Shown here: piece after piece, positions 19,969 to 40,192 of the stretch
How positions within the stretch are numbered: position 1 is the stretch's first letter
Layout of the letters: each line of letters starts with the position of its first letter
NCBI GenBank assembly: GCA_018238155.1
Contig: JABCTZ010000027.1
Span: forward strand, 1-40,647
Direction: 5' to 3'
DNA from: Candidatus Heimdallarchaeota archaeon
Lineage (GTDB): Archaea > Asgardarchaeota > Heimdallarchaeia > JABLTI01
DNA length: 40,647 bases
The notes under the pieces: model-generated
Seen by the model: only the letters and a program-made list of their open reading frames with translations
The model's database searches: none
Told to the model about the DNA's origin: nothing
Translations under genes and position numbers: made by a program

Positions 19969-20228
19969 TCTCCTGGAAACGTTACTACTTTGTGCCGACT
20001 TGAAAGAACACTAAGAAATTTACTTAATAAAGGACTAAATGAAACGACAAAAAACCTCTTAAGAGTAAAAACATTAGCTATTAGATTGTTTTTCGATAGA
20101 ATTTAATGAAGGTCAATTCCAAGATGCTTAAATAGTAAGAAAGAATGTAATAATGGTTGAGGTCTTTAACAGATCTTACCTATACTGATTCAATATTGAA
20201 TTAGAAAAATATTGGTGTAGAGAAAACA

Positions 20229-20774: not shown

Positions 20775-20809
20775 GATTTATCTGATGAAAAAAATATTGG
20801 TGAGAAATA

Positions 20810-22704: not shown

Positions 22705-24924
22705 CTATTGACGTTTGTAAACAAAACGAGACCAATTCTCGGGTGAAGGAACTTCAGCAGTCAAACCTTTGCGCGAGCGGATTTCAATGATAGTTTCAAC
22801 TTCCATGCTGGCAGGCATTTGCTCAAAAGCTTTAAACTGATAGCCCCAGAAACTACGACCAGAAGTTGCACTCCGGATCTTGTCGGCAAAATCACCTAAA
22901 GTCTCTGCAGTAGGTAACACACCGACAACGCGAACTTGCTCACCTTCGTCTACAGTATTTTCAACACGACCTCTATGTTGACTGATAAGACCCATGACAG
23001 CACCCATGTACTCTTTGGGAGTTTTAATATCTACAGAGAGAATAGGCTCATAGATATGAGGATTTGCTGTGAGGAATGAAATGTTCATAGCAGCAGTGGT
23101 CATACCAAGGATTTCAGAGAAACCGGTATGAGCGGGGTCAGTGTGAATAGTCGCATCTGTAATAACAACTTTGAGACCGAGAGTAGGTTCTTTTGCAACA
23201 CTGGCAGAGTAAGTAAAGTCACGGAAAATCTGAATGACATATTGCTTAATACGATCCATACGCTGGACACCAGAACTACCATCAATGATCATATTCTGAC
23301 CTTCCAGAGCCCAAATCTTACGAGCAAACTTAGCATCCCAACCGGCTTTATCACGAAGAATACCGGCACGAACTTTATCTCCCTGGTCCATATTGATTGC
23401 ACCACTCTTGATAAGAGCAGCAGCTTTATCGTCTAAAGGCTCAATGTAGAGCTTCAAACGATTATGACCGTTGGGAGATTTGGCATGAACAACACTACCT
23501 GTCTGGTTAATGCGCTCACGATAAACAATAATAGGCTCATTGATGTTAATCTTGATCTGCTCATTAATACGTTTAGTCAAAATCTCGATCTGAAGAGGAT
23601 CAATACCAGAGAGAACGTACTTATTGCTCTCTTTATCATGACGGAAAGTAGCAGTAGGATCAGCCATAATCCACTTGCTAACAACATCACCAAGCTTGGC
23701 TAAATCTTGAGGGTCAACAGCCTCAATAGCACGACTGACAACAGGCTCAGCAGCATAACTGATCTCTTCAAAGCCGGCATAATTAGTACCAGGCTCACGG
23801 AAGGACTCACCACTGGGCGCAATGAAACCGAACATAGCAAAAAGATTGCCTGCTGGAATCTCATCACAATCAAGGATATCAGTAATTTCCATAACACCTA
23901 AACGTTTGATAGGAACCTTCTTGCGCTGACCAATGAGCTCAATATCCATACCAGAACGAATGGTACCAGAGAAAATACGACCAATCAAAGTAGGACGCTT
24001 GCTCTTAGGATCAATGAAAACCTTAGTGATCATACCCAATAAAGGACCATTAGGATCACAGTTAACTAAGGCTTGACCTTCAGGAGAATCAATATCACCA
24101 CTCCAAATATGAGGGATCTTATACTTTTGAGCATCAGCAGGATTGGGTAAATGATTAATAACCATTCGAAGTAAAGCATCTTCTAAATGAAGATTATCGC
24201 GAAGCCACTGCCTGTCATCTTCCTCATACTTTTGGAAAACAACGTCAGGATTAGTATGACCAGCCTCTTTAAGAATCTCAAGAGTAAAAGCCCAACCATC
24301 CTTAGCACTGCCAATAGCAACACTGTTCTTAGCAAAAGAAACTTGCCACTTCTTCTTGAACTCAGGAGGAGCGAACTTTTTAATCTGCTCGTTAACCTGA
24401 GTGATAATAGTATCAACCTTCTCAAAAACCTTACTAGCAGGAAGCTTCAACTCGCTGATCAAACGATCAACCTTGTTAATAAACAAAACAGGCTTGCACA
24501 TCTCACTGCCAACACTCAACTGAATGTTAGTAATAGTCTGAGTCATCAAACCCTCTAAAGCATCAACTAAAATAATTGCGCCATCACTGCCTCTTAAAGC
24601 ACGACTAACCTCACCAGTAAAACTAATGTGACCAGGAGTATCGTTGATCTCAAAAAGATAGTCCTTGCCCTGGTGCTCGTAACTAAGAAGAACAACACTG
24701 GTAAAAATAGTTATACCACGCTCTTGCTCCTCTTCATCAGAGTCAGTCATTAACTTAGTGCCAGCATCATGATCGCTCATAAGACCAGCACGACGAAGCA
24801 AATAATCGCTCGTAGTGGTCTTGCCATGATCGATATGAGCGGCAATACTGAAGACACGACGCTGATCCATAGGATGGCTCTTGACCATGCCGCGAATTTC
24901 GTCGGGATTTTTAATACGTACCAC
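22705..24924 (-). CDS. Translation elongation factor 2 family GTPase, divergent stand-alone paralog (aEF-2p-like)
   Basis: AHIDHGKTT, RGITI, DTPGH, NKVD; domain IV loops SPNGHN and IHTDPAHTG; not preceded by rps12/rps7; GTG 24924 (MVRIK) preferred, GTG 24939 is the alternative. Confidence 0.92.
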   Translation of the reverse strand: MVRIKNPDEIRGMVKSHPMDQRRVFSIAAHIDHGKTTTSDYLLRRAGLMSDHDAGTKLMTDSDEEEQERGITIFTSVVLLSYEHQGKDYLFEINDTPGHISFTGEVSRALRGSDGAIILVDALEGLMTQTITNIQLSVGSEMCKPVLFINKVDRLISELKLPASKVFEKVDTIITQVNEQIKKFAPPEFKKKWQVSFAKNSVAIGSAKDGWAFTLEILKEAGHTNPDVVFQKYEEDDRQWLRDNLHLEDALLRMVINHLPNPADAQKYKIPHIWSGDIDSPEGQALVNCDPNGPLLGMITKVFIDPKSKRPTLIGRIFSGTIRSGMDIELIGQRKKVPIKRLGVMEITDILDCDEIPAGNLFAMFGFIAPSGESFREPGTNYAGFEEISYAAEPVVSRAIEAVDPQDLAKLGDVVSKWIMADPTATFRHDKESNKYVLSGIDPLQIEILTKRINEQIKININEPIIVYRERINQTGSVVHAKSPNGHNRLKLYIEPLDDKAAALIKSGAINMDQGDKVRAGILRDKAGWDAKFARKIWALEGQNMIIDGSSGVQRMDRIKQYVIQIFRDFTYSASVAKEPTLGLKVVITDATIHTDPAHTGFSEILGMTTAAMNISFLTANPHIYEPILSVDIKTPKEYMGAVMGLISQHRGRVENTVDEGEQVRVVGVLPTAETLGDFADKIRSATSGRSFWGYQFKAFEQMPASMEVETIIEIRSRKGLTAEVPSPENWSRFVYKRQ

Positions 24925-24968
24925 GCTTTTACAACTCACTAAACTTAATTTTTTTCAATTTTCTTTAG

Positions 24969-26060
24969 TTATCCCATTTCAAGCTCCATTCCTTCCACCT
25001 TTATACCGGATGGTTTTCGCCCTTGGTGGTCAGTCACTTGATCGCTTTTTCTTTCTTTAGAATCAGCTTCTTTGAACGGGTAGATGCGTTTCAGCACCTT
25101 TGACTTAGATAAGAATTTTTCTCTTTCTTCTTTTTCTTTAGTCGGTTTTGAAACTTTCCTTATTTCATCATCTTTTACTAAAATCACTCCCTTTTTAAAA
25201 TCTGCGATAAATAAGTTTACTGCTAGTAGCAGATGTTTTCTCAAGTTATTGTTGCTATAATTCATTGCTTCAGGTATTCTTCGTAGTACTTTTGATCGGT
25301 AGATGTAATTGTATAGTTCGTGTACTGAGTATTGGTTTAGTTCTAGTTCCTGTGCTAGTTTGTTGAAGTCTAGTTCTCCATTGAAATAGTCGTATCGAGC
25401 GGTCATTTTTCGCGGTATTTTGCGAGTTATGAACGCTGCTAGTCCGTCGTATTTTCTAATTATTGGTATCAACCAGTTGTCAGCGGTGAACTCCTTGTTG
25501 TGATGGTTCTCGCATGCTTCTCTTATGAGTTCATTTTCGATATTCACTTCTCGATATATTTTGCTGATGTGTTTCTCTGTTTTGACAAAGTCGTGCAGTA
25601 GTAGTGCTTTGATTGCTATTAGCATTGGTTCTGGATAGCTCCCTAGTCCTTTCAAGTATTGGAATTTTCGTTTTCTGGGCAGCTTTTTCTTACGCATGCA
25701 TTCCTTTCTTTCCAGCCATAGTATTTTTCCCATTCCATCTTTTTGATGTGCTCCCAATCCATCTAGGTTGAGGAACCACTTTAGTTTATTTTCTGTTTGA
25801 CCTCCCTCCCTTAGGGGGCGGAATCGCAAGTCCACTACTACATATCCTTTGAAACATTTTCGTACTGTGGGTGCCCTACGGTCTCCCTTGATGAGTTTTC
25901 CAAAGTGTGTTCTTCTTGGGTAGGGGAAATATCCTCTGTCGTTTTCCTCTGGGTGCTTGGTTATTGAAATTCTACACCCTTTCATATGAAAGAACGGTTT
26001 GTTGATTACAATAGGGGTGATTATTTTCCCTACTAGTCTTAGGCGTTTGCTTTCGACCAT
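24969..26060 (-). CDS. Cas5-like RAMP domain fused to a Cas10-type permuted HD nuclease domain
   Basis: N-terminal strand GKIITP and G-rich loop GLGAHQKDGMGKI; then ALLLHDFVK, NHH, KYDGLAA and distal IP...NLRKH; overlaps the upstream RAMP gene. Confidence 0.75.
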   Translation of the reverse strand: MVESKRLRLVGKIITPIVINKPFFHMKGCRISITKHPEENDRGYFPYPRRTHFGKLIKGDRRAPTVRKCFKGYVVVDLRFRPLREGGQTENKLKWFLNLDGLGAHQKDGMGKILWLERKECMRKKKLPRKRKFQYLKGLGSYPEPMLIAIKALLLHDFVKTEKHISKIYREVNIENELIREACENHHNKEFTADNWLIPIIRKYDGLAAFITRKIPRKMTARYDYFNGELDFNKLAQELELNQYSVHELYNYIYRSKVLRRIPEAMNYSNNNLRKHLLLAVNLFIADFKKGVILVKDDEIRKVSKPTKEKEEREKFLSKSKVLKRIYPFKEADSKERKSDQVTDHQGRKPSGIKVEGMELEMG

Positions 26061-26839
26061 GCTTTCATTCCCTCCTTCTTCTCTTTCTTGAGGTTTCGTA
26101 TTTTTTCCTCTTCGAATACTTTACCGTTCTTGTCGAACCCTTGAGAGCGAATTACTTCTTGCAGTTCTACTGAGTGAATATTCACTTTTCCGGAGCCATT
26201 ATTGACTGCTGCCCCTAGCCCTATTTCCTGTGCATTTAATATTCCTTTCAGAAGATATCCTAATTCTTCTTTTGTTACTTCTTCTAGGAACTCTATTTTG
26301 ATGGTAAACTCTCCGCCGAAATATCTCTCCCCGAAATCTTGTATTGCTGCTTTTGTTTTATGGACAAGTGAGTTTCTTCTTTCGGTGGCTATGTGCATCT
26401 TTTGTGTGTTTGCATCATTGATTTTTCCCTTGCTTGCTGTTGAGATAATTATCACTGGTTCAAATTTTAGTTTGGATGGCTTGCTTATTGACCCCATTAA
26501 TCTGTGTTGTATGCATTCCTCTGTTTCTAGGCACTTTCCTCTTGCATGAAATCCTTCTGGCAGCAAATTTACTCCACTTTGTGTTTCCGTTTTGCTTGAG
26601 GAATGGCATACTTCTACTCCTTCTTCCTTCGCTAGTGCCATCATTGCATGGTTGATCCATCCTCGTATTCCTTTCATTAGGTATCTCTTACTGTCATCTT
26701 TACTGTTCTCCGAACCATTTCCTAACAATAATAGGTTGTTCACTTTTCCTCCCACCGCCAGACCATTGCCCGTTTTTGCGATGGGTGTTTGCGCATCTAT
26801 TACTATTCGCTTGAATTTTCGTTCAATCATATTTCTCAT
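26039..26839 (-). CDS. cas7: Cas7-group RAMP protein (Csm3/Csc2-like)
   Basis: AQTP first strand; MKGIRGWINH helix; Cys cluster ending CIQHRLMGS....SKLKF; thumb ERRNSL; G-rich loop GLGAAVNNGSGKV. Confidence 0.82.
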   Translation of the reverse strand: MRNMIERKFKRIVIDAQTPIAKTGNGLAVGGKVNNLLLLGNGSENSKDDSKRYLMKGIRGWINHAMMALAKEEGVEVCHSSSKTETQSGVNLLPEGFHARGKCLETEECIQHRLMGSISKPSKLKFEPVIIISTASKGKINDANTQKMHIATERRNSLVHKTKAAIQDFGERYFGGEFTIKIEFLEEVTKEELGYLLKGILNAQEIGLGAAVNNGSGKVNIHSVELQEVIRSQGFDKNGKVFEEEKIRNLKKEKKEGMKAWSKANA

Positions 26840-26986: not shown

Positions 26987-27163
26987 ATGACAGAAGATGA
27001 AACACCAAAGATTGTCTTTGAACGGTCAATCATTTATGGCTCCGGAACGCATAGAGTAGCTATCCCATTAGAAATAATCAAAGCTTTGCAACTAGAAAAA
27101 GGGGATAGAATAAATGTTACTTTAGAAGGAAAGAAAATTATTCTCTGGAAAAAGGGAGAATAG
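26987..27163 (+). CDS. AbrB/MazE/SpoVT family DNA-binding protein (58 aa, not in the ORF track)
   Basis: Hand translation MTEDETPKIVFERSIIYGSGTHRVAIPLEIIKALQLEKGDRINVTLEGKKIILWKKGE; IP...L.L..GD signature. Confidence 0.85.
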   Translation: MTEDETPKIVFERSIIYGSGTHRVAIPLEIIKALQLEKGDRINVTLEGKKIILWKKGE

Positions 27164-27471
27164 TATTTCCAAGCGAGGGAGTTAAAAGCTCTATTTTTAA
27201 TTAATTTTCAAAAGGTTGAGAAGATACAATTGAGGGTAAAAAAATGAAATTTCTCGGAAGTTCCAAGATAACAAGACAATATCAAATTTCAATACCATCT
27301 GATGTGCGCGCTAAATTAGAATTAGCTTTAGGGGATCACATTATATTTGTAGAGGATACGGATGGTAGAATAATCCTTACAAAAGAAATCGCCTTACCTG
27401 ATGAATAGTTTCTAGTCTTTTTACAATAAGGAAGTCAAAGCACAGCTAGAAAAAGGGGATAGAATAAATGT
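27092..27471 (+). repeat. Perfect 26-bp direct repeat ctagaaaaaggggatagaataaatgt at 27092-27117 and 27446-27471
   Basis: Direct comparison; first copy lies inside AbrB-1, second is intergenic. Confidence 0.93.
27244..27408 (+). CDS. AbrB/MazE/SpoVT family DNA-binding protein (54 aa, not in the ORF track)
   Basis: Hand translation MKFLGSSKITRQYQISIPSDVRAKLELALGDHIIFVEDTDGRIILTKEIALPDE. Confidence 0.88.
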   Translation: MKFLGSSKITRQYQISIPSDVRAKLELALGDHIIFVEDTDGRIILTKEIALPDE

Positions 27472-27540: not shown

Positions 27541-28230
27541 ATGGAGTCTCTTGATCAAGAAATTGCACATTATAAGCAAATGGCGAGAGAATATAATAGA
27601 ATTGCTAATACATTCACTTTTTTTTGCTGTTGCACTGGTATTCCATTTCTACTTATAGGAACTTTTGATTACAATTCCAAAGCAAAACGTTGTTGGAGAC
27701 GAATAAGAGAACTAGAAGAACAAGAACAGCAAACTCAAGAAACATTGACTATATATTGTCAATCTTGTGGTCATACTATAAGAGAAGTACTAGAATTTTG
27801 CCCACAATGCGGGGAAGTAATAAAAGATATTGAAGAATATAGAATCGAATCAGCTAAACTACAACAAGAAACTGATAATCTTGAATTTGAAGATGAAATG
27901 CTGTACCAAGAAATTCAACTAAAGAATTTTGAAAAGAAAAAAAAATTCGCAATAATTACAAGTTCTATTGTTATTCCGGTCTCAATCATATTAGCTTTTT
28001 TCGCCCCAGTAGTAATGGGACTATGCAATGTTTTCAATCTAGTTTCTTTAATTATATCAATATCTATAATCGGAAAAGTACCAAAAGGTCAAGCTAAACC
28101 GCTAAAACCATTGATCTTAAGCCTTGTATCAATTGCTCTAACTCTTGGGTTATTCTTCTTAGCATTATTTTTGACTAGTAATGATCCTAACTTTATCCAA
28201 CCTATTGAACCATTGTGGAGACACTTTTAG
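27541..28230 (+). CDS. Zinc-ribbon domain membrane protein
   Basis: CQSCG...FCPQCG; N-terminal hydrophobic CCC segment; three C-terminal TM helices. Confidence 0.75.
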   Translation: MESLDQEIAHYKQMAREYNRIANTFTFFCCCTGIPFLLIGTFDYNSKAKRCWRRIRELEEQEQQTQETLTIYCQSCGHTIREVLEFCPQCGEVIKDIEEYRIESAKLQQETDNLEFEDEMLYQEIQLKNFEKKKKFAIITSSIVIPVSIILAFFAPVVMGLCNVFNLVSLIISISIIGKVPKGQAKPLKPLILSLVSIALTLGLFFLALFLTSNDPNFIQPIEPLWRHF

Positions 28231-28399
28231 CTCCACTAAAAGAAGAGTAATAAATCGAATTTTCAACAGCTAATTTTTTTGAATAAAAAGTTTAGACTCG
28301 TTACTATACAATTTTGAAAAAACTACTTAGTATTTGATCATAATATGGATTTAAATACAAAAAGTAATACAGTGATACTGGATTAGAGGAAGAGGAATA

Positions 28400-29440
28400 A
28401 TGACGATTAAGATTTTACATACTGCAGATTTACATCTAAGTAAGAAAAAACCTTATACAATAGCTGCTTTGGATGAGATATTAAAAGTAGCTAAGAAAAA
28501 TGAAGTCGAAATTCTCACGATTGGGGGCGATCTTTTTGATAAAAGAGATGATGCTGAAGATTTGCGTATTGAATTAAGAAGCAAGTTCTCAAAAAATGAT
28601 TTCAAAATAATTGCTATTCCCGGAAATCATGATACTGATGTTTATAGAGAAGGGTTAGATTTTGGGGAAAATTTCATTCCTATGACTGATGAACCTTTTG
28701 GCATTTATCCTCATAAAGATATAAATCTTGTAGCAATACCTTATTTGGATGAATTAAACCAAGATATGCTTGAGAAACTAAAAAAAGAAACAAAAGCTGG
28801 AAAAACGAATATACTTCTTCTTCATTGTACTTTAGATATTGGATTTAGCTCAGGTGATTTTGGAGATGAGAAAAAATATTGCCCAATAAGCAAATCTAAA
28901 TTAGAAAAGCTAGGTTATGAGTATATTTTAGCGGGACATTTTCACACGAAGACTGACATTGTAAAATTAAATGAAAAAAGTGTATTCATTTATCCTGGCT
29001 CACCAACATCAATAACTACAAAGGAATTAGGTAAGAGAAAAGTCGTATTGATTGATCTAGAAAAAAATGAGATAAAAGAAATTCCTCTGAAAACATTCTA
29101 TCATAACAAATTGATTGAAACAGTTATAGCTGATAAAGAAGATGATGCAATTTCTAATATTGAAAAATGGTTAAAAAAGCAAGTTATTTACGAAAAAAAC
29201 ATTGAAGTTACAGTTAATGGTTTTATTAATAGAAATGAAACTGAATATAGAAAAGCTATTAACGAAATTGACGAAAATGTGATTTTCATTTATAATTGTA
29301 AAGAAGTTGGTCAAATTTTGAATGATCCATTATTTATTAAATTTCTTGGGAAATTAGAGGAGAGTGACTATAAGGATAAAAGAGAGATAGAAGATCTTGT
29401 TTTAGAAATTGCTTCAAAGATTTTAGGTCAAGGGAGTTGA
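28400..29440 (+). CDS. Mre11/SbcD-like metallophosphoesterase nuclease
   Basis: HTADLH, GGDLFD, PGNHD, LLH, AGHFH, YPGSP. Confidence 0.9.
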   Translation: MTIKILHTADLHLSKKKPYTIAALDEILKVAKKNEVEILTIGGDLFDKRDDAEDLRIELRSKFSKNDFKIIAIPGNHDTDVYREGLDFGENFIPMTDEPFGIYPHKDINLVAIPYLDELNQDMLEKLKKETKAGKTNILLLHCTLDIGFSSGDFGDEKKYCPISKSKLEKLGYEYILAGHFHTKTDIVKLNEKSVFIYPGSPTSITTKELGKRKVVLIDLEKNEIKEIPLKTFYHNKLIETVIADKEDDAISNIEKWLKKQVIYEKNIEVTVNGFINRNETEYRKAINEIDENVIFIYNCKEVGQILNDPLFIKFLGKLEESDYKDKREIEDLVLEIASKILGQGS

Positions 29441-29444
29441 GAAA

Positions 29445-31397
29445 TTGAGAGTAAAAAGAATTAAAGTTGATAGATATGGACCTTTAAAGAATTTAGATTT
29501 GAATTTGAATCCAGGTATTAATGTTATATATGGACTAAACGAATCTGGTAAATCTTTGACAATGGATTTTCTATTAAAAAAGCTATCAAAGAAACAGAAA
29601 GCGCAATACAAACGAGAAGATAGAGTAAATGAAAAACCTGAAGGTTATATCATCTTTCATGATACCGACGATATAAAATTAGAGCCGAATCAATGCTTAA
29701 CAGATTTTCTTCCTAAAATTAAGGATGCAGATATTTGTAGAATTTTTGTAATGAAAGATTCAGATTTAAACATACCTGATAGCAAATATTATTCCGATAT
29801 TACATATCGTTTAACTGGATCAAGAACAGCAGATATAGATAAAATAAAGGTAAAAATATTAGAATATGGTTTTTTAACAAAAAGCAATTTGGGATTATTG
29901 AATACTTCCAAAAGCAGTAATTTGAGAGATAGAGTTAAAGATGCAAATACTCTGAAAAGGGATGCTTCAAAGTACATAATAGAGATAGAAGAAAACAATA
30001 TACGAGTGTTGGAAGGTAGAATATTTACTAATAAAATAAAATTGAAACAGATGGAGGAAGACTTAAAGAAACAGAAAGTAGCAAAACAAATACATGAATT
30101 TGAAAAAAACAAAGAAGCTATTGATGAAATTGGACTTTGTAAAGCTAATATTGAGACACTACCTAAAGCAGATTTCTTAAACTCTTTGAAAGTAAAACTT
30201 AGTGAATATATTACTAACGAAATTAGTTATCAGAACCATTCTAAAATCTCTAAATTTTCAATATGGGGAATAATTCTTTCATTTTTATTTTGTTTTGTGT
30301 ATTGGTTGGCTTGGATATTCACTACACAACCAGTTATAGGAATCATTACTCCGATAATGACTTCATTCTTTCTGTTATCATATTCAATCTTGTGGTTTAT
30401 TGCTTACTATAGAATGAAAACTCAAAATGAATTAAGGGATGAAATAATTGAAAAAGGAAAGGAAATGGGCGTGGTAGAAGAAACCATTGAAAAGATAGAA
30501 GAATTATTGGAAAGCAATTTGGAATCTATTGATGAATGTAATGACAAAATCACTGAAAATATTGGTGCACTAAAAAGGAGTTTAGATTTAATAGTAGATT
30601 CTGAAAAAGTCATTGAACAAGCAGAGAAGGAATTATTGGAAATTGAAGGAAAAATAGATTTGAAATTAAGAATAAAATATAAACAATCAAAAGTGGATGC
30701 CTTGGAAAAAAGCATAAGTGATTTGAGAAATGAAATCTCTACAAGCGAAGGTGATTTGAAGCAACATAGTGAAAAATTATATGAATTTTCAAGAAGATTT
30801 TCAAAACTAAAAATTTCCTTAAGTTTAAATGAAGAATTTGATTTACATATTGAAAATAGTGATTCATTGCCTGTTCTCATTGAGAAACTTCATCAATTTA
30901 TTAGTTTCATTGAAAATAGAGCAACAACTTGTAGAAATGCATTGGAGATTTTCAATAAAATAAGCAATGAAGAAAAAGAAAAGATAAATCAATTATTTGA
31001 TGAAGACAACGTTAGTATCGAATTGTTTAATGAGATGACAAAAGGGAAATATGATAATATAATGTTTGAGTCAGAAAGTGGTAATATTATTGTTAAGGAA
31101 TCAAGTGGAGGAGAAAAATCTGCTTATAAACTAAGTGAAGGTGCATACGATCAGCTATATTTTGCTATTAGAGTGGATTTAGCTCAGCGAATTTTGGATG
31201 GAGATAGTGGTTTCCTTATTATGGATGATATTTTCCTTTCATATGACATTGATAGATTAACAGAGGCTTTCACTATACTCAAGAAACTTGCTGATATGAA
31301 TTGGCAGATAATTTACTTTACAGCAAAAGATGAGGTTTGCAAACAATTTTCTAAAGTATCAGAAAATAAACTCATTAAACTTGAACCTTTAGAGTAA
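29445..31397 (+). CDS. Rad50/SbcC-like ABC ATPase with two central TM helices (YhaN-like architecture)
   Basis: Walker A GLNESGKS, coiled coils, signature LSEG, Walker B LIMDD; hydrophobic hairpin at about aa 272-322; no CxxC hook. Confidence 0.87.
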   Translation: MRVKRIKVDRYGPLKNLDLNLNPGINVIYGLNESGKSLTMDFLLKKLSKKQKAQYKREDRVNEKPEGYIIFHDTDDIKLEPNQCLTDFLPKIKDADICRIFVMKDSDLNIPDSKYYSDITYRLTGSRTADIDKIKVKILEYGFLTKSNLGLLNTSKSSNLRDRVKDANTLKRDASKYIIEIEENNIRVLEGRIFTNKIKLKQMEEDLKKQKVAKQIHEFEKNKEAIDEIGLCKANIETLPKADFLNSLKVKLSEYITNEISYQNHSKISKFSIWGIILSFLFCFVYWLAWIFTTQPVIGIITPIMTSFFLLSYSILWFIAYYRMKTQNELRDEIIEKGKEMGVVEETIEKIEELLESNLESIDECNDKITENIGALKRSLDLIVDSEKVIEQAEKELLEIEGKIDLKLRIKYKQSKVDALEKSISDLRNEISTSEGDLKQHSEKLYEFSRRFSKLKISLSLNEEFDLHIENSDSLPVLIEKLHQFISFIENRATTCRNALEIFNKISNEEKEKINQLFDEDNVSIELFNEMTKGKYDNIMFESESGNIIVKESSGGEKSAYKLSEGAYDQLYFAIRVDLAQRILDGDSGFLIMDDIFLSYDIDRLTEAFTILKKLADMNWQIIYFTAKDEVCKQFSKVSENKLIKLEPLE

Positions 31398-31498: not shown

Positions 31499-33106
31499 TT
31501 GGTTTTAATGCTTCACTGGTCCACAGATCCTCTATTACTAGATAAAGAACCAATGAAAGCAAACAACTGGGAAACAGCAAATTCACTGATAGAGAAGGGA
31601 AGAATAACAGAAATCATTTCTCCAGATCTCCACTTCAAAAACATCTATGGAATAATGGTTCGAAAGAATGATTTTGTTCGAAAGAGCTCTCGAGATAGGA
31701 TCATTGCCCGATTCCCGTTCCTTATTTTAACTGACGAGATTCGAGCTAAAATTCAAGAACGAACCCTTCTCATAGCTGAAGTGGCTCGAGATTACTTTTA
31801 TCGCTCTATAAACAAGTCGATCACTGCCTGGCGGGATATTGTTTTGAAGTATATTGAACGGGGTGCGTTGCCCTTTCCATTATTTCGCTGTGCACAGGAA
31901 ATTATTCCGGAATTATCCTTACCCGTGAATGGTTCTGGCACTATTCCTTTTATGAGTGCTCGAGGAGAAGCATTTACTTTTCCAACGAAGATGTCCAACC
32001 AATTAGCCTATCTTTGCGGTATTTGTAATGGTGATGGAAATTTGCGTGAATATTGGATTATTGTTGCTGATGAAACGAAAGAGCATATTGAGTTTGTTAC
32101 CCAGTTACTTGCTAAGTCATTCTCTAAATCTGGTAAACTAATGAAAACAGGAGGAGCTTGGATAGTAAAACTGAACCTGCTCTGGTCTGTGCGGTTATTC
32201 AACTTTCTAACAGACCAAGCAATAGATGAACCAAAGTATGATTCACTTCGAGAACCGCTAGTTTTTCAATCTTCATTAGGTAAAACTTTCCGAAATGACT
32301 ATTGGAGAGGAATAATGGATAGTGATGGATCATATTCAAAGTACAATATTTGTTTAACAACTGCATCAAAACCGTTAATGGTAAGTTTTGCTAATTTCCT
32401 TGAGGAAAAGAAAATAAAATATTCTACCAAAGAAAATTATTACAAAGAAATGGATGCTTATGGTTATATGGTTCAAATTCTAGCTGCTTCGCACATTGAC
32501 TTTTGCTTAATGTTGGATTCTTATTATATTAACAAAAAGAAACAACTAGATGCTATCTTAAGAAGAAAAGTAATACAACACAATAAAGGACAGATACTTC
32601 ATTTAAAAGAAACTTCCTTAACCTTAGATGGTTATTTTGATTTTAATAAATTAATTGATTTACGAATTATCTTAACACCAAAATTAGCATCAGATTTGTA
32701 TGAAAACATTAACTTAGCTTTACTAGAACAAAAGCAATCTACTCATAATAGATACAAAAACGGAAAACTTGCTATCCCTCTTTCAATAATTAAAGAAATT
32801 CGAGAAGAAACAAATCAAGAAGACATTTGTTCATATATCGTTCAAAATGAAATCACTCAATTTTATTCGGGAAAGAGCTCAGCTAAATTGCCACTAAAAC
32901 CAAATAAAACTCTGGAAGAAATTTTACTGTTACTGAAAATTCGTAAGGGATATTTGTATATCGATTTATCAAATATTGACATTTCACTTAAACCTATTAA
33001 AATAAAAATCGAAGAGACATTTGCTATTACAATAGAGGATACAGAATTATGGAATAAGGTTATATACAAATTCATTAAAACTTTCTACAAAATTAATTCC
33101 GAATAG
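31499..33106 (+). CDS. Free-standing double-motif LAGLIDADG endonuclease-like protein
   Basis: LAYLCGICNGDGNL and DYWRGIMDSDGSY motifs about 100 aa apart; no Hint/intein splice motifs seen. Confidence 0.78.
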   Translation: MVLMLHWSTDPLLLDKEPMKANNWETANSLIEKGRITEIISPDLHFKNIYGIMVRKNDFVRKSSRDRIIARFPFLILTDEIRAKIQERTLLIAEVARDYFYRSINKSITAWRDIVLKYIERGALPFPLFRCAQEIIPELSLPVNGSGTIPFMSARGEAFTFPTKMSNQLAYLCGICNGDGNLREYWIIVADETKEHIEFVTQLLAKSFSKSGKLMKTGGAWIVKLNLLWSVRLFNFLTDQAIDEPKYDSLREPLVFQSSLGKTFRNDYWRGIMDSDGSYSKYNICLTTASKPLMVSFANFLEEKKIKYSTKENYYKEMDAYGYMVQILAASHIDFCLMLDSYYINKKKQLDAILRRKVIQHNKGQILHLKETSLTLDGYFDFNKLIDLRIILTPKLASDLYENINLALLEQKQSTHNRYKNGKLAIPLSIIKEIREETNQEDICSYIVQNEITQFYSGKSSAKLPLKPNKTLEEILLLLKIRKGYLYIDLSNIDISLKPIKIKIEETFAITIEDTELWNKVIYKFIKTFYKINSE

Positions 33107-33480: not shown

Positions 33481-33918
33481 ATAAAATTAGTAGAGCAATA
33501 CAATGCCGGAGTATATAATGCTGATATTTTCTTTGAGCAATTATTGTCATTTACAAATGAACTAAACGAAGAGGAAAAAAGAGGTATTGGTGAAAATCTC
33601 ACAGAGGAAGAATTAGCTGTTTTCGATTTGTTGTTCAAAGTTGATTTAACCAAAAAAGAAAAAACAATGGTTAAAGATGCTGCAAAAGAACTATTGAAAG
33701 TACTAAAAGAAGAACGGAAATTGGTTATTGATTGGCGTAAAAAACAGAAAACTCGAGCTACTGTGCGTTTGGCTATAGAACTACAATTAGAAAAAATGCT
33801 CCCTGAAAGTTATGACCAAAAATTATACTATCAAAAATGCGATCAAATTTACCAGCATATCTACGATAATTACTTTGGTGATAATCTGAGTACTTATACA
33901 AAATTAACTAGTCAATAA
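33481..33918 (+). pseudogene. hsdR: C-terminal remnant of type I restriction endonuclease subunit R (DUF3387-like region)
   Basis: Frame extends upstream of the ORF call (IKLVEQYNAGVYNADIFFEQLL) into ENLTEEELAVFDLL, LVIDWRKKQKTRATVR and IYQHIYDNY; nuclease and helicase parts are absent. Confidence 0.82.
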
Positions 33919-34101
33919 TTTTTCATAGTCAGATTCCATTTAATGAGCAATATTAGCATTAGAAATATTGTTATTTTTTCAAAATATAAAATCATCTTTG
34001 TTCTTAAAAATTAAGTTCAAAAACATAAAGAAATGTGACAATGTTTATGTAACCAATAATTTATAAGTACGATTGTTAATAGGTCAGTGTTCTTGTGGTA
34101 G

Positions 34102-34734
34102 GTGATTATGGTGAGTAAATTTACTTTAGCTTCTATTGTTTTATTAGCAGAAGCACATAATCCAAGTATATTATCTCCAGATTGGTTGAAAAAGAATAAA
34201 GTTATTACTGAAAACCCAAAACAATTTGCTCTTACTCCTGATTTTGCACTTTTCGACTCTAAAAGCTACAATCTCATTGTTGATCGTCAAAGATTACAAC
34301 TAAGTGCTAAAAAACCTTCTTTGCAAAGTGTAAAATCCATTACCCAAATAATTACAAAATATCTTGAAATTCTACCACATATACCTTACTTGCGTTTAGG
34401 GTTGAATTTCGAATGGTTGGTTGAAGAAAGTGAAACTACTGCTCCACCTGAGATAAGTCTCTCACTTGGGTCTATAATTGATATATCTCCTCTAATTCCT
34501 GACCATGAGATTTGTTATGGGTCAATCATTTACGCGAAAGAAAGTGATTATAAGATGCGAATATCTATTGCACCACCTAACGAAGATGCAGTAACATATA
34601 AGTTTAATTTTGATTATACTATTAAAGATCGACCAGTAGAAAAAGTAATCGAATTTGTTACCTCTTACATTGAAAAATATAAATTCGCATTTAACATTGT
34701 TAAGAAAACTATAGAAATTAAAGGAGTAGAATAA
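34102..34734 (+). CDS. Hypothetical protein with an NPxIxxPxWL motif (resembles TIGR04255-like proteins)
   Basis: HNPSILSPDWL and LPHIPYLRLGLNF; coupled to the next gene. Confidence 0.65.
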   Translation: MIMVSKFTLASIVLLAEAHNPSILSPDWLKKNKVITENPKQFALTPDFALFDSKSYNLIVDRQRLQLSAKKPSLQSVKSITQIITKYLEILPHIPYLRLGLNFEWLVEESETTAPPEISLSLGSIIDISPLIPDHEICYGSIIYAKESDYKMRISIAPPNEDAVTYKFNFDYTIKDRPVEKVIEFVTSYIEKYKFAFNIVKKTIEIKGVE

Positions 34735-35333
34735 TGATGAGTAGATTATGTTTTCAAGTCGGATCTCCTTCAACCGAAGCATATGATATCAAAGAAGTTG
34801 ATTCATTACCAAAGCAAGCCCAATTTGAAAAGATTAAAACTGATACTTCTCTCTATCTAAACCATATACAAGCGTTAGATCGATTGTATGTAGACATTAA
34901 AACGGCAAATGTTTTTCCGAGTTTAATCAGCCAACAAAACAAATTTGTCTCACTTGTTTCATTCAATTTCAAACAATCAAAACTTTTTTCTCCTATGTTG
35001 GATTCCCAAGAAATTTATCGAGAAATCGATTCGTGGAATATTTCATTCCGAACTAAAAAGTTAGTAAATCATTTTCTATTAGATCATCCTGAATTAATGG
35101 AAATCATACCAAAAGCTGATTTGATTATTAGGAATTACTTCTCTGATTACTCTTTACTTCTCGAAGTACAGACAGATCCAGAAGATGATTCGTTATTATT
35201 AATCCTCTTTATTCAAACTTCATTATCTGCAAAAGAAGCGTATGATGCTCTTGATCAAATTGACAATTTGTGGTGGACGGAGATTTCAGAAGAAATAGGT
35301 GATTTGATGTGTCTTCACGTAGAGTTCCAGTAG
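34734..35333 (+). CDS. Hypothetical protein, candidate antitoxin partner of the downstream HEPN gene
   Basis: Acidic C-terminal domain (LEVQTDPE...EAYDALDQIDNLWW) overlapping the HEPN start. Confidence 0.55.
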   Translation: MMSRLCFQVGSPSTEAYDIKEVDSLPKQAQFEKIKTDTSLYLNHIQALDRLYVDIKTANVFPSLISQQNKFVSLVSFNFKQSKLFSPMLDSQEIYREIDSWNISFRTKKLVNHFLLDHPELMEIIPKADLIIRNYFSDYSLLLEVQTDPEDDSLLLILFIQTSLSAKEAYDALDQIDNLWWTEISEEIGDLMCLHVEFQ

Positions 35334-35707
35334 ATTTTTCTTGGTATCAATATTATGAATTAGCTCAACAATTATTTGAAGACTCGAAAAAAAATTCACC
35401 ACTCTCCGAATCTATGCTTCGTTCTTCTATTAGTCGAGCATACTTTGCTTCCCATTGTTTAGCACGAAACTTTCTTCGAGATGTGAGAGAACTAGCACCT
35501 CCTATTAAAAAAACTCATTCTTGGGTAATTAATACTATCAAAGATGATAAAGATTCAAGAATTCGTAAAATTCATGCCCAACTGAACCGTTTACGTATTG
35601 ATAGAAACAGTGCTGATTATAGTGATTCACTAAGACAATTATATTCAATGGCGGAGGGTGCATTAATTGGTGCACGTCAAACAATTGATATTCTTGATGA
35701 ATTCTAA
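35309..35707 (+). CDS. HEPN domain protein (putative RNase toxin)
   Basis: LRSSISRAYFA, conserved H, and LRIDRNSADY motif; all-helical, 132 aa. Confidence 0.8.
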   Translation: MSSRRVPVDFSWYQYYELAQQLFEDSKKNSPLSESMLRSSISRAYFASHCLARNFLRDVRELAPPIKKTHSWVINTIKDDKDSRIRKIHAQLNRLRIDRNSADYSDSLRQLYSMAEGALIGARQTIDILDEF

Positions 35708-35794: not shown

Positions 35795-36538
35795 ATGCCA
35801 AATACTTTCAATCTCAGTAAAACGGAATTTACAGCCTATCTAGAATGTCCTATAAAATTCTATTTACAAAAGGAGCAGAATCTAACAACGAAGCAAGGAC
35901 CGAGAGGGGGCGTAAATAGTGATTTTTATCCTCCTCATTTATCGGGTGGGATGATCTGGCATGATCGTCTTGCAGAATTCTATCGTAATACAGCCAAAGA
36001 TCTTCTTGCAGGGACAGTTTCTGAACGTGAAGTTCTCACTCATCATATCTATCAACTTTTCTGGCAGCGGGAGCTCCATCGTTATGAAGTTGATCCTTCT
36101 CATTGGTTTCCTCTTGCTTTTGAATATTATTTCTCTTCTCCGACTATGCGTGGTAAGATTGACCGTATTGATCCTCTTGGTGCCACAGAATGTTGTTTAG
36201 TTGAGTATAAGGCTCGTCCGGGAACCAGTGGTTTTCTTGACGAAGAATTACTTTTCTATGCTCTTCTTGCTTCTGAGAGTGACGATTTCTGTCGAACAAT
36301 TGGTCGTCCTGTTACCCGTGTTGCTTGTTATTTTTATCGCACTGGTGAGTGGTATACTCGAGAGATTGTTCCCGAGGAACTTTCCTCTTTCCGCGAGTTT
36401 CTTTCTCCTCTTCGCTCTGAGATGCTTACTGGCAACTGGGCTCGTAAACATGCATGTTCTCTCTCTTCTCATGATTGTTCTTATGCTGTTGTTTGCACTA
36501 AAATACTTGATAGGTTCTTAATATCCTCTAGAGAGTGA
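35795..36538 (+). CDS. cas4: Cas4/AddB-like PD-(D/E)XK nuclease with a 4-Cys cluster
   Basis: LSKT....YLECP, G...H, RGKIDRID, LVEYK, ELLFYA and C-terminal C-x6-C-x5-C. Confidence 0.8.
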   Translation: MPNTFNLSKTEFTAYLECPIKFYLQKEQNLTTKQGPRGGVNSDFYPPHLSGGMIWHDRLAEFYRNTAKDLLAGTVSEREVLTHHIYQLFWQRELHRYEVDPSHWFPLAFEYYFSSPTMRGKIDRIDPLGATECCLVEYKARPGTSGFLDEELLFYALLASESDDFCRTIGRPVTRVACYFYRTGEWYTREIVPEELSSFREFLSPLRSEMLTGNWARKHACSLSSHDCSYAVVCTKILDRFLISSRE

Positions 36539-36576
36539 CTGTCTACTTTCTCCCTTTTTTCGTTCTCTTTTTTTTA

Positions 36577-37263
36577 TTAGCTGCTAGTTATTTTTGTTAT
36601 CCCTATTGTCATCAGAATCTTTTTCTCTATTTCACTTGCAATTTCATCTTCTAGTTCGCATTCTGTCATCTCTCCTACATACTCAAAATACGTTCTTCTT
36701 ATTTCTTGAATGAACTTTTCAATTTCTCTCACCGTTCCTTTTCGATACGCTCTTCTTTTCTCTTCCTGCAGTTCTATCTCTTTTGGTTCTTTTTCCTCTT
36801 CTTTTTGATTTATCTCTCGAGCAAACTCCTCTACCATTGTTTCGTAATCTATTTCTTGACTATCTAATCTTATTGTTCGTTTTATTCTCCCCACAAATGG
36901 GGATGATACATTGATAGCATATTTCCGTTTGTTGGTCCGTAAAATACCTTCTTTCACCAGTTGTTGCAACCTTTCTGTTATCCTACTCTTTTCCCATGGT
37001 AATCGCTCACAATACCAAGCTCTGCTATGATATTGGCTCTCACCTGTTTCGATAAATTCTTCGAGTAGCACTTTTACAATGTTGCTCGTTGTTTGCACTT
37101 CTTTTTCAGCTAGTTCATTGATGATATTATCCACTTTACTCCGTTCTTCTACATACAATTGTGTTGGACTCGCTAGTAATTCCTCTTCCAATGCTACCAA
37201 TAATTCTTCTATTGTTTCTTCTGTTGGATTTTTTCCTTCCTTTTGATTCAATTCTCTTCTCAC
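36577..37263 (-). CDS. Winged-helix DNA-binding protein with acidic helical flanks
   Basis: SRAWYCERLPWEKSRITERLQQLVKEGIL HTH pattern; GTG 37263 with gaaggtg upstream preferred over TTG 37314. Confidence 0.65.
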   Translation of the reverse strand: MRRELNQKEGKNPTEETIEELLVALEEELLASPTQLYVEERSKVDNIINELAEKEVQTTSNIVKVLLEEFIETGESQYHSRAWYCERLPWEKSRITERLQQLVKEGILRTNKRKYAINVSSPFVGRIKRTIRLDSQEIDYETMVEEFAREINQKEEEKEPKEIELQEEKRRAYRKGTVREIEKFIQEIRRTYFEYVGEMTECELEDEIASEIEKKILMTIGITKITSS

Positions 37264-37276
37264 CTTCTTTTTTTTT

Positions 37277-39367
37277 CTATAATTCGAAATCAAACTCCTG
37301 TTTTTGTTCTTCAATTTTGAATTGGAATGGTCGAAAGTATTCCTTTGCTTGTTGTACTACTTGCAGCATTGCTTTCCTGATTCTTTGTTGTTCCTTCCAA
37401 GATAGTTCTGTCCATCTATTTTTTCCTCCTACGGTCCAAGCATTGTATTGTTTCTTTTCATTAGAGATGAGCATTTCCTCCTTCCAGATGACATCGCTCA
37501 AAAATTGTTTCAAACTCAGTACCTGATAATCCATTGCTTTATCTAGACTACACATCTGTTCTTTACCGTTCATCCAAGTTAGTATGTTCCCTTTTATCAC
37601 TCGTTGACATTCTTTACCCAGCACCTCATTTCCTTCTGACTCTGGTAACAAGTAATATTGTGGGATTCTTTTTCGTAATCGTTGAGAAAAGATCATATCA
37701 GGGGTGATTTTTTCTTCAACAACTGCTATCACCATTGCGGGTATTATTGCTTGTTTGAACCCCTCTTCATTATCTAGTAGAAAACCGTATCTTCCTCCTG
37801 TTGTTTTTCTATGACAAAAGCCGGGTAATCCTTCCCACGGAAATTGGTGTTCGATACACTTTTTGATAAAAACAGTATTTATCTTCCCAAAGAATGCATT
37901 TGCTACTGTGTTTCCTTTTGAGAAGCTAAAATGGATCTCATATGGTCGTATCGGGTCTCTTTCTGTATGCCTTGCTTTCCTTCTATTCGGAAAATCAAAT
38001 TTATTTTCCTCAAAGATTCCTTTTAGTACCCCCCATTGGTAATTTGCTACGAATCCGTCTTTTTGATTCCATTCTTCACTTCCAAGTGGTATCCCTTGTT
38101 TCTTTCTTCTCATTAATTCATTGATTTTTTTGTTGCTCTCTTCCAGCGCTCGACCCAGCAATTTTCTATCACTGTATTCGGTTATTTGCTCTAGAGCATT
38201 TCTTCTGCTCCAAAGCAATGACATAGCATACTCAATATTCAACACTTCTGTTTCTCGTAGCAGTCCCACTGCACCGATTTGTTGTCTAGTAGGTTCAATA
38301 CTCTCGAGTTGTTCTTCTCTTTGAATGATTCTTATTTCGGAGAAGTTTCTTCCCAGTCTTCTCTTCAAAATATCATATTCTTCTTTATTATTCACTACCA
38401 AGAATTTCAGTTGAGTGTAGTGAGCATAGAGATTGTATGAGGTTAATAGTGCCATTTCCTTATGCAAGTCTTCTTCTTCACTGAAACTTTTCAAAGAAAT
38501 ACCATATTTACCACTCGCTTTGAATAATGGCGGTTCTTCTCCTCCGGTATAGATTTGATAGTTCTTTGAGTATTCGTGATATTTCTCTTGTGCAGCTTTC
38601 ACCCCATAGACTCCTTCGCTTTCGTTAAACCTCAGTTTATAGAAAGAGCCACAATAGTTGCATATGCGCAGTGCGCTGCCAATGTTAGGGAGCATTCCCC
38701 ACCCTAGGTTGATCATAGGTTTTTTACAAAATATGCAACGATAGGCAACCATTGCTTCTTTTGGAGATGTAATATAATAGCTATCTCTTTCACTCAAGTC
38801 GAACCAAAGTTCTGTATCACCTGCTTTATCAGCAAAATCTTGAATTGTTCGAAACGTTACAAGTGCTCTTGTCGTTCGTGAGATAAACCATTTACAAGCA
38901 AGCATTTTTGCAGGGAGATTAGCAAGTAATCGTATTCTATCTGTTGGATAACCTTTTGCAGCTAATTCTTGGAAAAAAGTGCATCTAGAGGTAAACCTGT
39001 TCCAATTCTCACATGAACCACACACTTTGAAAATATATTCTGGCCATTGAAAGTGATAGGGGATGTAGAATCTTTTTTCCTTTTTGAACCATTTAACTTT
39101 TCTAGATTTAATCTTCTTTTGTAATCTAAGTCTATTCATATAATCAGAAACAGTGCTTGAAGGAAGATTCGTTAACTTTTCTAGATCAAAGGTTGTCGCT
39201 GGAAAGGAGCAATTTAGTCGTTCATAATATTCCTCTCGAGTGAGTTCATTGTATTCCTCATAAGAAATTACCATTGCTCGCATTGCTTGTTCTTCTACAA
39301 AGAAGAGTATTTCCTCTTCCTTCTCATTTCGTAATTTTATTCGTTTACTATTATCCCATACAGTCAT
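37277..39367 (-). CDS. cas1: Highly diverged Cas1-family integrase with N-terminal wHTH and two Cys clusters
   Basis: C-terminal half follows the Cas1 motif order: KDGFVANYQW (EG...Y[WF]), FDFPNR (F..R), GNTVAN (N..LN), PGFCH (GFLH), FLLDNEEGFK (L..D..E.[FW]R), SLDKAMDYQVLSL; N-terminal HTH LTNLPSSTVSDYMNRL; CGSC..C..C and CIFC..CNYC. Confidence 0.72.
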   Translation of the reverse strand: MTVWDNSKRIKLRNEKEEEILFFVEEQAMRAMVISYEEYNELTREEYYERLNCSFPATTFDLEKLTNLPSSTVSDYMNRLRLQKKIKSRKVKWFKKEKRFYIPYHFQWPEYIFKVCGSCENWNRFTSRCTFFQELAAKGYPTDRIRLLANLPAKMLACKWFISRTTRALVTFRTIQDFADKAGDTELWFDLSERDSYYITSPKEAMVAYRCIFCKKPMINLGWGMLPNIGSALRICNYCGSFYKLRFNESEGVYGVKAAQEKYHEYSKNYQIYTGGEEPPLFKASGKYGISLKSFSEEEDLHKEMALLTSYNLYAHYTQLKFLVVNNKEEYDILKRRLGRNFSEIRIIQREEQLESIEPTRQQIGAVGLLRETEVLNIEYAMSLLWSRRNALEQITEYSDRKLLGRALEESNKKINELMRRKKQGIPLGSEEWNQKDGFVANYQWGVLKGIFEENKFDFPNRRKARHTERDPIRPYEIHFSFSKGNTVANAFFGKINTVFIKKCIEHQFPWEGLPGFCHRKTTGGRYGFLLDNEEGFKQAIIPAMVIAVVEEKITPDMIFSQRLRKRIPQYYLLPESEGNEVLGKECQRVIKGNILTWMNGKEQMCSLDKAMDYQVLSLKQFLSDVIWKEEMLISNEKKQYNAWTVGGKNRWTELSWKEQQRIRKAMLQVVQQAKEYFRPFQFKIEEQKQEFDFEL

Positions 39368-39380
39368 CTTTGCATCTCCC

Positions 39381-39614
39381 CTACAATTTAGTCAATTTTG
39401 CTTTGAGTATCTTTCTCTGTATGCCAAATTTAGTGTAAAACCAAGTATCAGTTATTTCAGGGAAGATCTGTTTTAATTCTTCGAATTGTTCTGCTACCAG
39501 AACATCATATTCTCGTAGATCTAATTCTACAATTGTTTTGTTTTGTGCTCGAGTGAATTCACTGGCTATTCCTTCTGCTAATTTTTGAGCAATCTCTTTT
39601 GCATTTCTTAACAA
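39381..39614 (-). CDS. Small hypothetical protein (77 aa) in the Cas1-like operon
   Basis: Overlaps the upstream stop codon and ends 13 nt before the Cas1-like start. Confidence 0.6.
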   Translation of the reverse strand: MLRNAKEIAQKLAEGIASEFTRAQNKTIVELDLREYDVLVAEQFEELKQIFPEITDTWFYTKFGIQRKILKAKLTKL

Positions 39615-40192
39615 GTAGCTAGCATGTTTCTCAATGATGGCGTATTCATTATCTGAAATTTCATTATGTATAGAAATTCGTGGTTTACTTTCCTCTGTAG
39701 AACAATTTTTCTGAAAACACTTGTTTCAATTTTATTTAGAAATTTATCACTAATAACCATTAGAAAATCCGTTACATAACTTGAGTGAAAATTCAAGCAA
39801 TATTTTTTTTTGTTTTTCTCACCATTTTTTTGAATGATGTCTCTAGCTTTTAATCTCTTTATAGTATTACAGATTGAATTATAGTGGCAATCGAGTTTTT
39901 GAGCGACGGACCTTTGATTTCCAATAGAAAAGCAATTACTAGAGACTATTCCCTTCCATAGACAATATAACAGCAACTTTTGTGTAGTTTTTGTTTCCTT
40001 TGTAATTGTTCTCCAATAATTGTTTTCACTATTGAAACTTGAAATAACACTCACCTTTTTTTTGTCGCTTCCTTCTTTCGCTTTACAATAAATCCTATCC
40101 CAATTTTCTTTAAAAAGAGCAAAAAAATCAGATCTTTTTTCTTTATAACTATTATTACATTCATATAACAAGAGTTTATGAAAACAAATCAA
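39608..40192 (-). CDS. Winged-helix DNA-binding protein, first gene of the Cas1-like operon
   Basis: NQRSVAQKLDCHYNSICNTIKRLKARDII HTH; start uncertain. Confidence 0.62.
   Translation of the reverse strand: MICFHKLLLYECNNSYKEKRSDFFALFKENWDRIYCKAKEGSDKKKVSVISSFNSENNYWRTITKETKTTQKLLLYCLWKGIVSSNCFSIGNQRSVAQKLDCHYNSICNTIKRLKARDIIQKNGEKNKKKYCLNFHSSYVTDFLMVISDKFLNKIETSVFRKIVLQRKVNHEFLYIMKFQIMNTPSLRNMLATC

Follow-up and report, generated by a model that had tools for sequence, protein, structure and literature searches.

The window analysed here, a stretch of 40,647 nucleotides, is the entire 40.6-kb contig (C42) of a 4.08-Mb metagenome-assembled genome (MAG) from the Heimdall group of Asgard archaea, and it carries a gene cassette built around a distant homologue of Cas1. 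Cas1 is the enzyme that writes CRISPR immune memory and moves casposons, and Asgard archaea hold, to our knowledge, the widest range of Cas1 forms. The cassette is a set of five genes of ~6.5 kb, coding for a LAGLIDADG endonuclease, a Cas4-like iron-sulfur (Fe-S) nuclease, the 245-aa protein p245, a Cas1-like integrase of 696 aa, and a winged helix-turn-helix (wHTH) protein of ~241 aa. Judged from profile alignments and a structural model, the 696-aa protein is a true member of the Cas1 superfamily in an extremely diverged form, called aCas1, and its identity as an enzyme is secure. The best explanation of the sequence and model comparisons is that the cassette would be, or would derive from, an integrative mobile cassette that operates with neither Cas2 nor a CRISPR array nor a polymerase. 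This reading is drawn from the Cas1 fold, the active site, the conserved gene set, a duplication of the cassette in the related genome G147, a pair of att-like repeats around the paralogue on contig C6, and the turnover of cargo genes. We lean, with modest confidence, towards a CRISPR-independent and polymerase-less integrative cassette around aCas1, of which the window copy would have sat for long at a hot spot and may be disabled by a frameshift. Throughout, G000 denotes the genome of the window, G143–G147 related genomes, L-numbers compared loci, and C-numbers contigs of G000.

Fold and active site of the Cas1-like protein

The kinship of the 696-aa protein with Cas1 is visible only in profile-profile and fold comparisons. 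Pfam and NCBIfam, including the curated Cas1 model PF01867, gave no Cas1 match to the protein even at E ≤ 1, and a 14-sequence profile did not recover canonical Cas1 among the PDB sequences. A phmmer search of 1.84 billion representative proteins returned only 21 relatives, with no canonical Cas1 among them. Homologues of the protein carry the names Heimdallarchaeaceae or Heimdallarchaeota. The AlphaFold model, for which 13 homologues of 40–87% identity were the input, is confident over residues ~360–690. The top 50 Foldseek matches of the model are Cas1 or casposase and nothing else. VIA aligned 270 residues, placing residues 323–684 of the model on residues 43–344 of Archaeoglobus fulgidus Cas1 (4n06_A) with a Z-score of 21.7 and a root-mean-square deviation of 4.5; the Z-score to the Methanosarcina mazei casposase (6opm_A) is 20.9. 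The Cas1 domain occupies the C-terminal half, at about aa 322–688. As to the N-terminal β-strand domain of Cas1, some VIA alignments begin at model residue 265 or 322, but residues 262–322 have a predicted local distance difference test score (pLDDT) of <50. The initial annotation, made from the DNA alone, had named the fold of the C-terminal domain as a check on its Cas1 assignment, and within the top 50 Foldseek matches the model hit Cas1 and casposase only.

The catalytic residues could be placed by comparing the C-terminal half with 27 aligned sequences of canonical Asgard Cas1. Hhalign matched the two with 91% probability (E 1e-6, 185 columns), pairing D437 with the Glu of the Cas1 motif 'iEG', H519 with the His of 'gFLH', and D532 and E535 with the acidic pair of 'LD..E'. 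The Cas1 motifs that the initial annotation had read from the sequence, with Asp in place of the usual Glu, followed by His and Asp/Glu, thereby fall on active-site columns of Cas1. In Escherichia coli Cas1, the catalytic residues are E141, H208, D218, and D221 (PMC9939771). Position 437 is Asp in the clade of the window and Glu in four in-genome paralogues. H519, D532, and E535 are invariant, including in these four paralogues of 25–29% identity, which likewise keep R462, R466, and N490. The conserved residues and the modelled fold suggest that the 696-aa protein is probably an active Cas1-family integrase.

An extension of ~320 aa precedes the Cas1 domain. It contains a wHTH at about aa 55–105, found in the model and by weak HTH matches, and two four-cysteine clusters (C116/119/129/158 and C211/214/236/239), the same modules that had been recognised at the outset. 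All eight cysteines are invariant over orthologues and paralogues of ~25% identity.

Partner genes of the cassette

All five open reading frames (ORFs) of the initial annotation are present where it had placed them (Table 1). The genes of the minus-strand operon overlap or are separated from their neighbours by ≤13 nt. The Cas4-like gene and the p245 gene are convergent, with their 3' ends 38 nt apart.

Table 1. Features of the window and content of the variable slot in related genomes
Feature	Position	Strand	Basis or remark
Cas1-like integrase, 696 aa	37277-39367	-	Foldseek, VIA, hhalign; no Pfam/NCBIfam Cas1 match
Cas4-like PD-(D/E)XK nuclease, 247 aa	35795-36538	+	Pfam PDDEXK_1, E 8.9e-14
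p245, winged-helix protein, 245 aa, downstream of Cas1-like gene	36577-37314	-	alignment, model, VIA
p194, N-terminal (HTH) part of frameshift-split ~241-aa gene	39608-40192	-	orthologue alignment, weak HTH matches
p77, C-terminal part of frameshift-split ~241-aa gene, 77 aa	39381-39614	-	orthologue alignment
LAGLIDADG endonuclease-like protein, 535 aa, fifth cassette gene	31499-33106	+	Pfam LAGLIDADG_3 (PF14528)
Insert between LAGLIDADG and Cas4-like genes: HsdR-like fragment and three-gene set	33544-35707	+	Pfam T1RH-like_C
Variable cargo slot: Zn-ribbon protein, Mre11-like phosphoesterase, Rad50/SbcC-like ATPase	27541-31397	+	Pfam
363-aa and 266-aa genes, directly upstream of EF-2	24969-26839	-	flank cassette here and in relatives
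EF-2	22705-24939		
Right edge: 150-bp spacer, then gene start from 40342, contig end	40193-40647	+	
Slot content, G147: NucS/PDDEXK nuclease			
Slot content, G143: MazE and HEPN			
Slot content, G144: two genes without known family			
Slot content, G145 and G146: empty			

The 247-aa protein bears the sequence marks of Cas4, that is, PD-(D/E)XK motifs together with a four-cysteine Fe-S pattern, and the initial annotation had rightly called it Cas4-like. Its Pfam match is PDDEXK_1; Cas_Cas4 is not among the listed matches. The motif residues D123 and E137-x-K139 are invariant over 12 orthologues and paralogues. The cysteines are arranged in a 1+3 pattern, in which C18 and C221 are invariant and C228 and C234 nearly so among 12 relatives. 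A complex prediction for the Cas1-like domain (residues 320–696) with the Cas4-like protein scored 0.01, a result that weighs neither way.

For p245, the top VIA matches are all wHTH regulators of the ArsR/MarR type, with Z-scores of 9–10 over residues 36–160, and Foldseek with the p245 model gave zero matches at E ≤ 0.001. The winged-helix fold rules out p245 as a disguised Cas2.

The 77-aa ORF had been taken for a gene of its own, which it is not: together with the 194-aa ORF it makes up one gene of ~241 aa. This wHTH gene is intact in six orthologues and split in the window into p194 and p77; the six orthologues have a single upstream gene, to whose first two thirds p194 aligns. The frame of p77 remains open and homologous upstream to ~39700, which places a single frameshift near 39650–39700. 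A related metagenome contig has positions 39677–39813 replaced by 136 letters rather than 135, and in another species (L067) the gene is split at the same linker. The frameshift may have disabled the window copy. It also speaks for a stronger view, that the copy is a decaying remnant without present function, as does the insertion of foreign genes that separates the LAGLIDADG gene from the Cas4-like one. We find this view improbable because none of the Cas1-like, Cas4-like, p245, and LAGLIDADG genes is truncated and all keep their catalytic and cysteine residues, because the split in L067 implies that a two-piece form may be tolerated, and because a frameshift in a MAG could be an assembly error.

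The fifth member of the cassette is the 535-aa LAGLIDADG protein, whose match to LAGLIDADG_3 scores 32.2 bits against a cut-off of 22.5. The motifs G178-D179-G180 and D274/D276-G277-S278 are invariant among 10 sequences, and the enzyme is apparently active to judge by these residues. A LAGLIDADG gene adjoins every paralogous cassette. The C-terminal half of the protein is less conserved. Between G145 and G146, this C-terminal half is replaced, with flanks of 88–92% identity (L068 11640–12428 versus L070), and it is likewise replaced between the two cassette copies of G147 (L063 6524–7254 versus L064). The C-terminal half looks like a swappable specificity module.

The absence of cas2, a CRISPR array, and polB from the locus, as first annotated, is confirmed within the window. 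TRF and Rfam found no CRISPR array in the window, and no Cas2 is encoded there; the single Cas2 of the genome adjoins a canonical Cas1 on contig C15. No family B polymerase (PolB) was found in the window, and the protein-primed PolB family PF03175 has no match in the whole genome. The family B polymerase model PF00136 has three matches in the genome, on contigs C17, C7, and C45. The polymerase gene on C17 (G000:C17:27266–28501) lies ~14 kb from the cassette paralogue on that contig and is probably a chromosomal replicase.

These searches bear on the idea of a stand-alone adaptation module that would supply spacers in trans to the arrays or type III systems of the genome, with a wHTH protein in place of Cas2. 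Cas1 and Cas4 form the core of many adaptation modules, and two such structures (7mi4 and 8d3l) are among the structural matches. At one orthologous locus (L005), the cassette abuts RAMP genes and an HD-containing 975-aa gene. We nevertheless consider this idea very improbable. The window has no array, the genome has its canonical cas1-cas2 pair on C15, p245 is a wHTH protein rather than a Cas2-like one, and at least five diverged copies per genome with a constant LAGLIDADG partner fit poorly. The RAMP adjacency is a single case, and the RAMP genes of the genome of the window lie on C26, apart from every cassette copy. An ARAMP link was rejected on the same grounds, with RAMP genes beside one orthologue only and on a separate contig in the genome of the window. 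At another locus (L004 13599–14792), a TnpB (OrfB_IS605/Cas12f-like) gene adjoins the LAGLIDADG gene of an orthologous cassette.

Evidence of movement in relatives and the copy in the window

We surveyed 83 genomes of the class. The Cas1-like family occurs in eight of the 10 other genomes of the genus of the window, with 1–10 matches each, and in 0 of the 72 genomes outside the genus; it is restricted to one genus, with several copies per genome. Complete paralogous cassettes are found elsewhere in G000 on C6, C43, C13, and C17. Variant Cas1-like forms are a 1212-aa fusion on C19 (L012) and a form in three pieces on C11 (L011), each adjoining a DEAD/Cas3-like helicase. The conserved gene set is present in the orthologues and in at least four in-genome paralogues. 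Conservation of the five-gene order had been named initially as a check. A set of five genes is conserved in orthologues and paralogues, with a membership other than first read; the LAGLIDADG gene, the frameshift, and the multi-copy family had been missed.

Evidence of movement comes from other members of the family. G147 contains two cassette copies with 87% nucleotide identity over the five genes only (L063 5576–12137), in unrelated flanks. The 6.5-kb match spans the DNA between a point 140 bp upstream of the LAGLIDADG gene and one 153 bp upstream of the gene for the ~241-aa protein. In G000, the C6 paralogue begins 100 bp from a tRNA-Leu gene, and a 42-nt direct repeat of the tRNA-Leu 3' end (36/42 matches) lies 8 kb away, beyond the cassette. 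Besides the cassette, this interval holds only an Orc1/Cdc6 gene and a 180-aa ORF, and no other integrase was found in it. Casposons insert at the 3' ends of tRNA genes, including tRNA-Leu in M. mazei, and at the 3' end of aEF-2 (PMC9939771). Mobility is thus supported for relatives of the cassette and not for the window copy. The proposal of a mobile element, made at first for the window itself, finds support in the C6 tRNA-Leu pair and the G147 duplicate; for the window copy, whose right boundary is out of sight, no terminal inverted repeat (TIR), target-site duplication (TSD) or empty site was found.

If the cassette integrates, the Cas1-like enzyme would join the DNA of the element to a specific target. 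Its wHTH and Zn modules, together with the two wHTH proteins, could recognise the ends or the target, and the Cas4-like nuclease might trim the ends. The LAGLIDADG enzyme would cut site-specifically, with its variable C-terminal half setting the specificity. Such Cas2-free, site-specific integration, if true, would inform the question of how CRISPR came to recruit Cas1 and Cas4, and might offer a new tool for DNA insertion. These parts could even be combined into a so far uncharacterised class of Cas1-driven mobile cassette, a hybrid between homing and Cas1 integration, in which LAGLIDADG, with its swappable specificity half, opens a chosen site, Cas4 trims, and the wHTH/Zn-Cas1 protein inserts in the manner of att sites at tRNA 3' ends, leaving long direct repeats and needing neither polymerase nor TIRs. 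We put this class forward as a tentative possibility; if it exists, it might be a living model of the recruitment of Cas1 and Cas4 before CRISPR.

The window copy itself is a different matter, and several observations weigh against its mobility. The order EF-2, 363-aa gene, 266-aa gene, variable slot, and LAGLIDADG gene is shared by the window, G143 (which matches L001), G145, G146, and G147, and G144 has an equal gene order beside the 266/363 pair without the EF-2 link. The LAGLIDADG gene accordingly sits at one chromosomal place in five species by EF-2, and in a sixth by the 266/363 pair. A complete cassette is assembled at the EF-2 locus in the window and in L001, between which the Cas1-like proteins are 44% and the EF-2 proteins 82% identical, a difference that a vertically inherited, fast-evolving locus could show. 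At the presumed termini of the window cassette, inverted and direct repeats do not rise above shuffled controls, and no TIR, TSD or att site was found; beyond the operon, 455 bp of contig remain. The orthologues share no terminal motif that we could find, a scan detected no tRNA fragment near the window cassette, and at the ends of the G147 copies the best inverted and direct matches, sought as TIR, TSD or att-like repeats, are no better than those of shuffled sequences. The right boundary is out of sight because the contig ends in a repeat, and the ~241-aa gene of this copy is frameshifted. A fixed syntenic locus, which the initial annotation had set down as a refutation of mobility, is in part what we see for the window copy, as the EF-2 locus is shared across the genus.

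No empty site was found: in G147 and G144, the genes past the 266-aa gene have no clear counterpart in the genome of the window, and both loci also lead into a LAGLIDADG gene. The window cassette lies on the 5' side of EF-2, with two genes between and no repeat. Over its final 450 bp, the contig matches the end of C11 (G000:C11:136009–136453) with 94% identity in the same orientation. This stretch is the 5' end of a multi-copy gene whose product is hydrophobic at its N-terminus, and there the assembly breaks. An incongruence between host and module in G145 and G146 proved unusable, as their Cas1-like contigs could not be tied to the EF-2 locus and the difference there is confined to the C-terminal half of LAGLIDADG. 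Public sequencing runs contain small parts of the locus only (shares of 0.10 and 0.05), on contigs of related strains; the joints in them are mostly short-sided and resemble cross-matches between paralogues, and neither excision nor expression was seen in these runs.

The genes around the cassette have turned over. Between the 266-aa gene and the LAGLIDADG gene, the window has Zn-ribbon, Mre11-like, and Rad50-like genes, and each relative has its own content (Table 1). Two contigs of a related strain from a public sediment metagenome join position 27226/27228 directly to 31640. Between the LAGLIDADG and Cas4-like genes lies a fragment resembling the C-terminus of the type I restriction protein HsdR (33544–33918; T1RH-like_C, E 1e-11), followed by three genes without known family (34102–35707; 210, 199, and 132 aa). 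The three-gene set moves as a unit: in L001 (5386–6991) it is on the opposite side of the cassette, in the P0012 contig it adjoins the Cas4-like gene, and a second, diverged set is alone on the 4.6-kb contig C36 (L013). Neighbours of defence type in relatives include DruA, HD, and SocA in L003 and a type III effector in L005. The window copy would be long resident at a conserved hot spot by the 266/363/EF-2 genes, with cargo of defence type accreted around it.

The same neighbourhood lends itself to the main rival of the integrative cassette, a fixed chromosomal system of defence or DNA capture without an array, in which the enzymes would hit invading DNA or a host target and the copies would represent paralogous immune specificities in defence islands. 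The single locus by 266/363/EF-2 across the genus and the failure to find TIR and TSD are consistent with it. So are the neighbours typical of defence islands (Mre11/Rad50-like genes and a type I restriction-modification fragment in the window; MazE with HEPN, a NucS-like nuclease, DruA/HD/SocA, and a type III effector in relatives), and the variable C-terminal half of LAGLIDADG resembles a diversifying specificity. We regard this rival as rather doubtful, since in G147 the cassette was copied as a unit into unrelated flanks and the C6 paralogue lies between tRNA-Leu att-like repeats with no other integrase. Moreover, defence islands also gather mobile elements, and none of the five conserved genes codes for a sensor or effector of the kind seen in known defence systems. 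If this rival is right, adaptation enzymes would here serve a new purpose without an array.

Several other features of the window were noted. It also encodes archaeal EF-2 and a CCA-adding enzyme. The Mre11-like and Rad50/SbcC-like pair (28400–31397) in the turnover slot is perhaps a defence pair and not housekeeping Mre11-Rad50. In G000 and in G147, the 363-aa family counts 9–10 matches each, several of them within 6–10 kb of Cas1-like paralogues. The 363-aa and 266-aa genes may belong to the host or to the element, or may be a preferred target. Neither the 363-aa nor the 266-aa gene has a Pfam match, and an Atlas look-up of the 363-aa protein gave no usable match. Upstream of the 266-aa gene, a non-coding 29-nt direct repeat (27089–27117 and 27443–27471) occurs as copies 97% identical and 354 bp apart, and the DNA between them (27229–27401) is 74% conserved with G144. 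A stretch of 14 nt at 6381–6394 matches the T-arm region in many tRNAs of the genome and may be a tRNA fragment; ARAGORN and Rfam made no tRNA call there. The extreme contig start (1–136) is a perfect 24-nt tandem repeat of 5.7 copies, and a tandem pair of 181-aa genes (20224–21347) has 78–82% nucleotide identity, the two lying 581 bp apart.

Comparison with known Cas1 systems

Whichever mechanism applies, the cassette is a compact set of parts: an integrase whose catalytic residues have been mapped, a Cas4-like nuclease, an apparently active LAGLIDADG enzyme, two DNA-binding proteins, and a paralogue with visible attachment sites. Distinct forms of Cas4 reportedly accompany some of the Asgard Cas1 homologues. 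According to the summary in PMC8730458, Makarova et al. (2020, CRISPR J 3:156) described extremely diverged Cas1 homologues from Asgard archaea, some of which were thought to be part of new mobile elements. In that summarised description, the 696-aa protein fits aCas1 as an extremely diverged Asgard Cas1 homologue outside a CRISPR locus, which bears out the kinship suggested in the initial annotation. Asgard Cas1 homologues of this kind are thus already published, to go by the summary, and the cassette adds a member to them. It shares with aCas1, as summarised, the Asgard host, a Cas1 so diverged that sequence searches miss it, the absence of an array, and a proposed link to mobile elements. 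aCas1 has been proposed as a transposase, and aCas1-TnpB loci have been described (PMC10691335). The TnpB gene beside one orthologous cassette (L004) recalls these loci. TnpB and RAMP genes are not constant in the cassette; the constant partners are LAGLIDADG, the Cas4-like protein, and two wHTH proteins.

Casposons, whose casposase belongs to Cas1-solo group 2, share with the cassette a stand-alone integrase of the Cas1 family without Cas2 or an array, the catalytic tetrad, and an HTH within the enzyme. The C6 paralogue resembles the M. mazei casposon in its insertion at a tRNA-Leu 3' end. However, the cassette has no family B polymerase, no TIR or TSD was found at the ends of the G147 copies, and around the C6 paralogue the repeat copies 42 nt of a tRNA end in the manner of an att site, in place of a TSD of 14–15 bp. 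In the Cas1-like protein the HTH and Zn modules are N-terminal, and the Cas4-like and LAGLIDADG genes are always present in the cassette.

The Cas4-Cas1-Cas2 adaptation modules (7mi4 and 8d3l) likewise combine a gene of the Cas1 fold with a neighbouring Fe-S PD-(D/E)XK nuclease of the Cas4 type. The cassette differs from them in having neither Cas2 nor an array nor a leader, and in an N-terminal extension of 320 aa. In the clade of the window, Asp replaces the catalytic Glu. The Cas1-like and Cas4-like genes are convergent in the cassette, whereas in the adaptation modules they form one operon.

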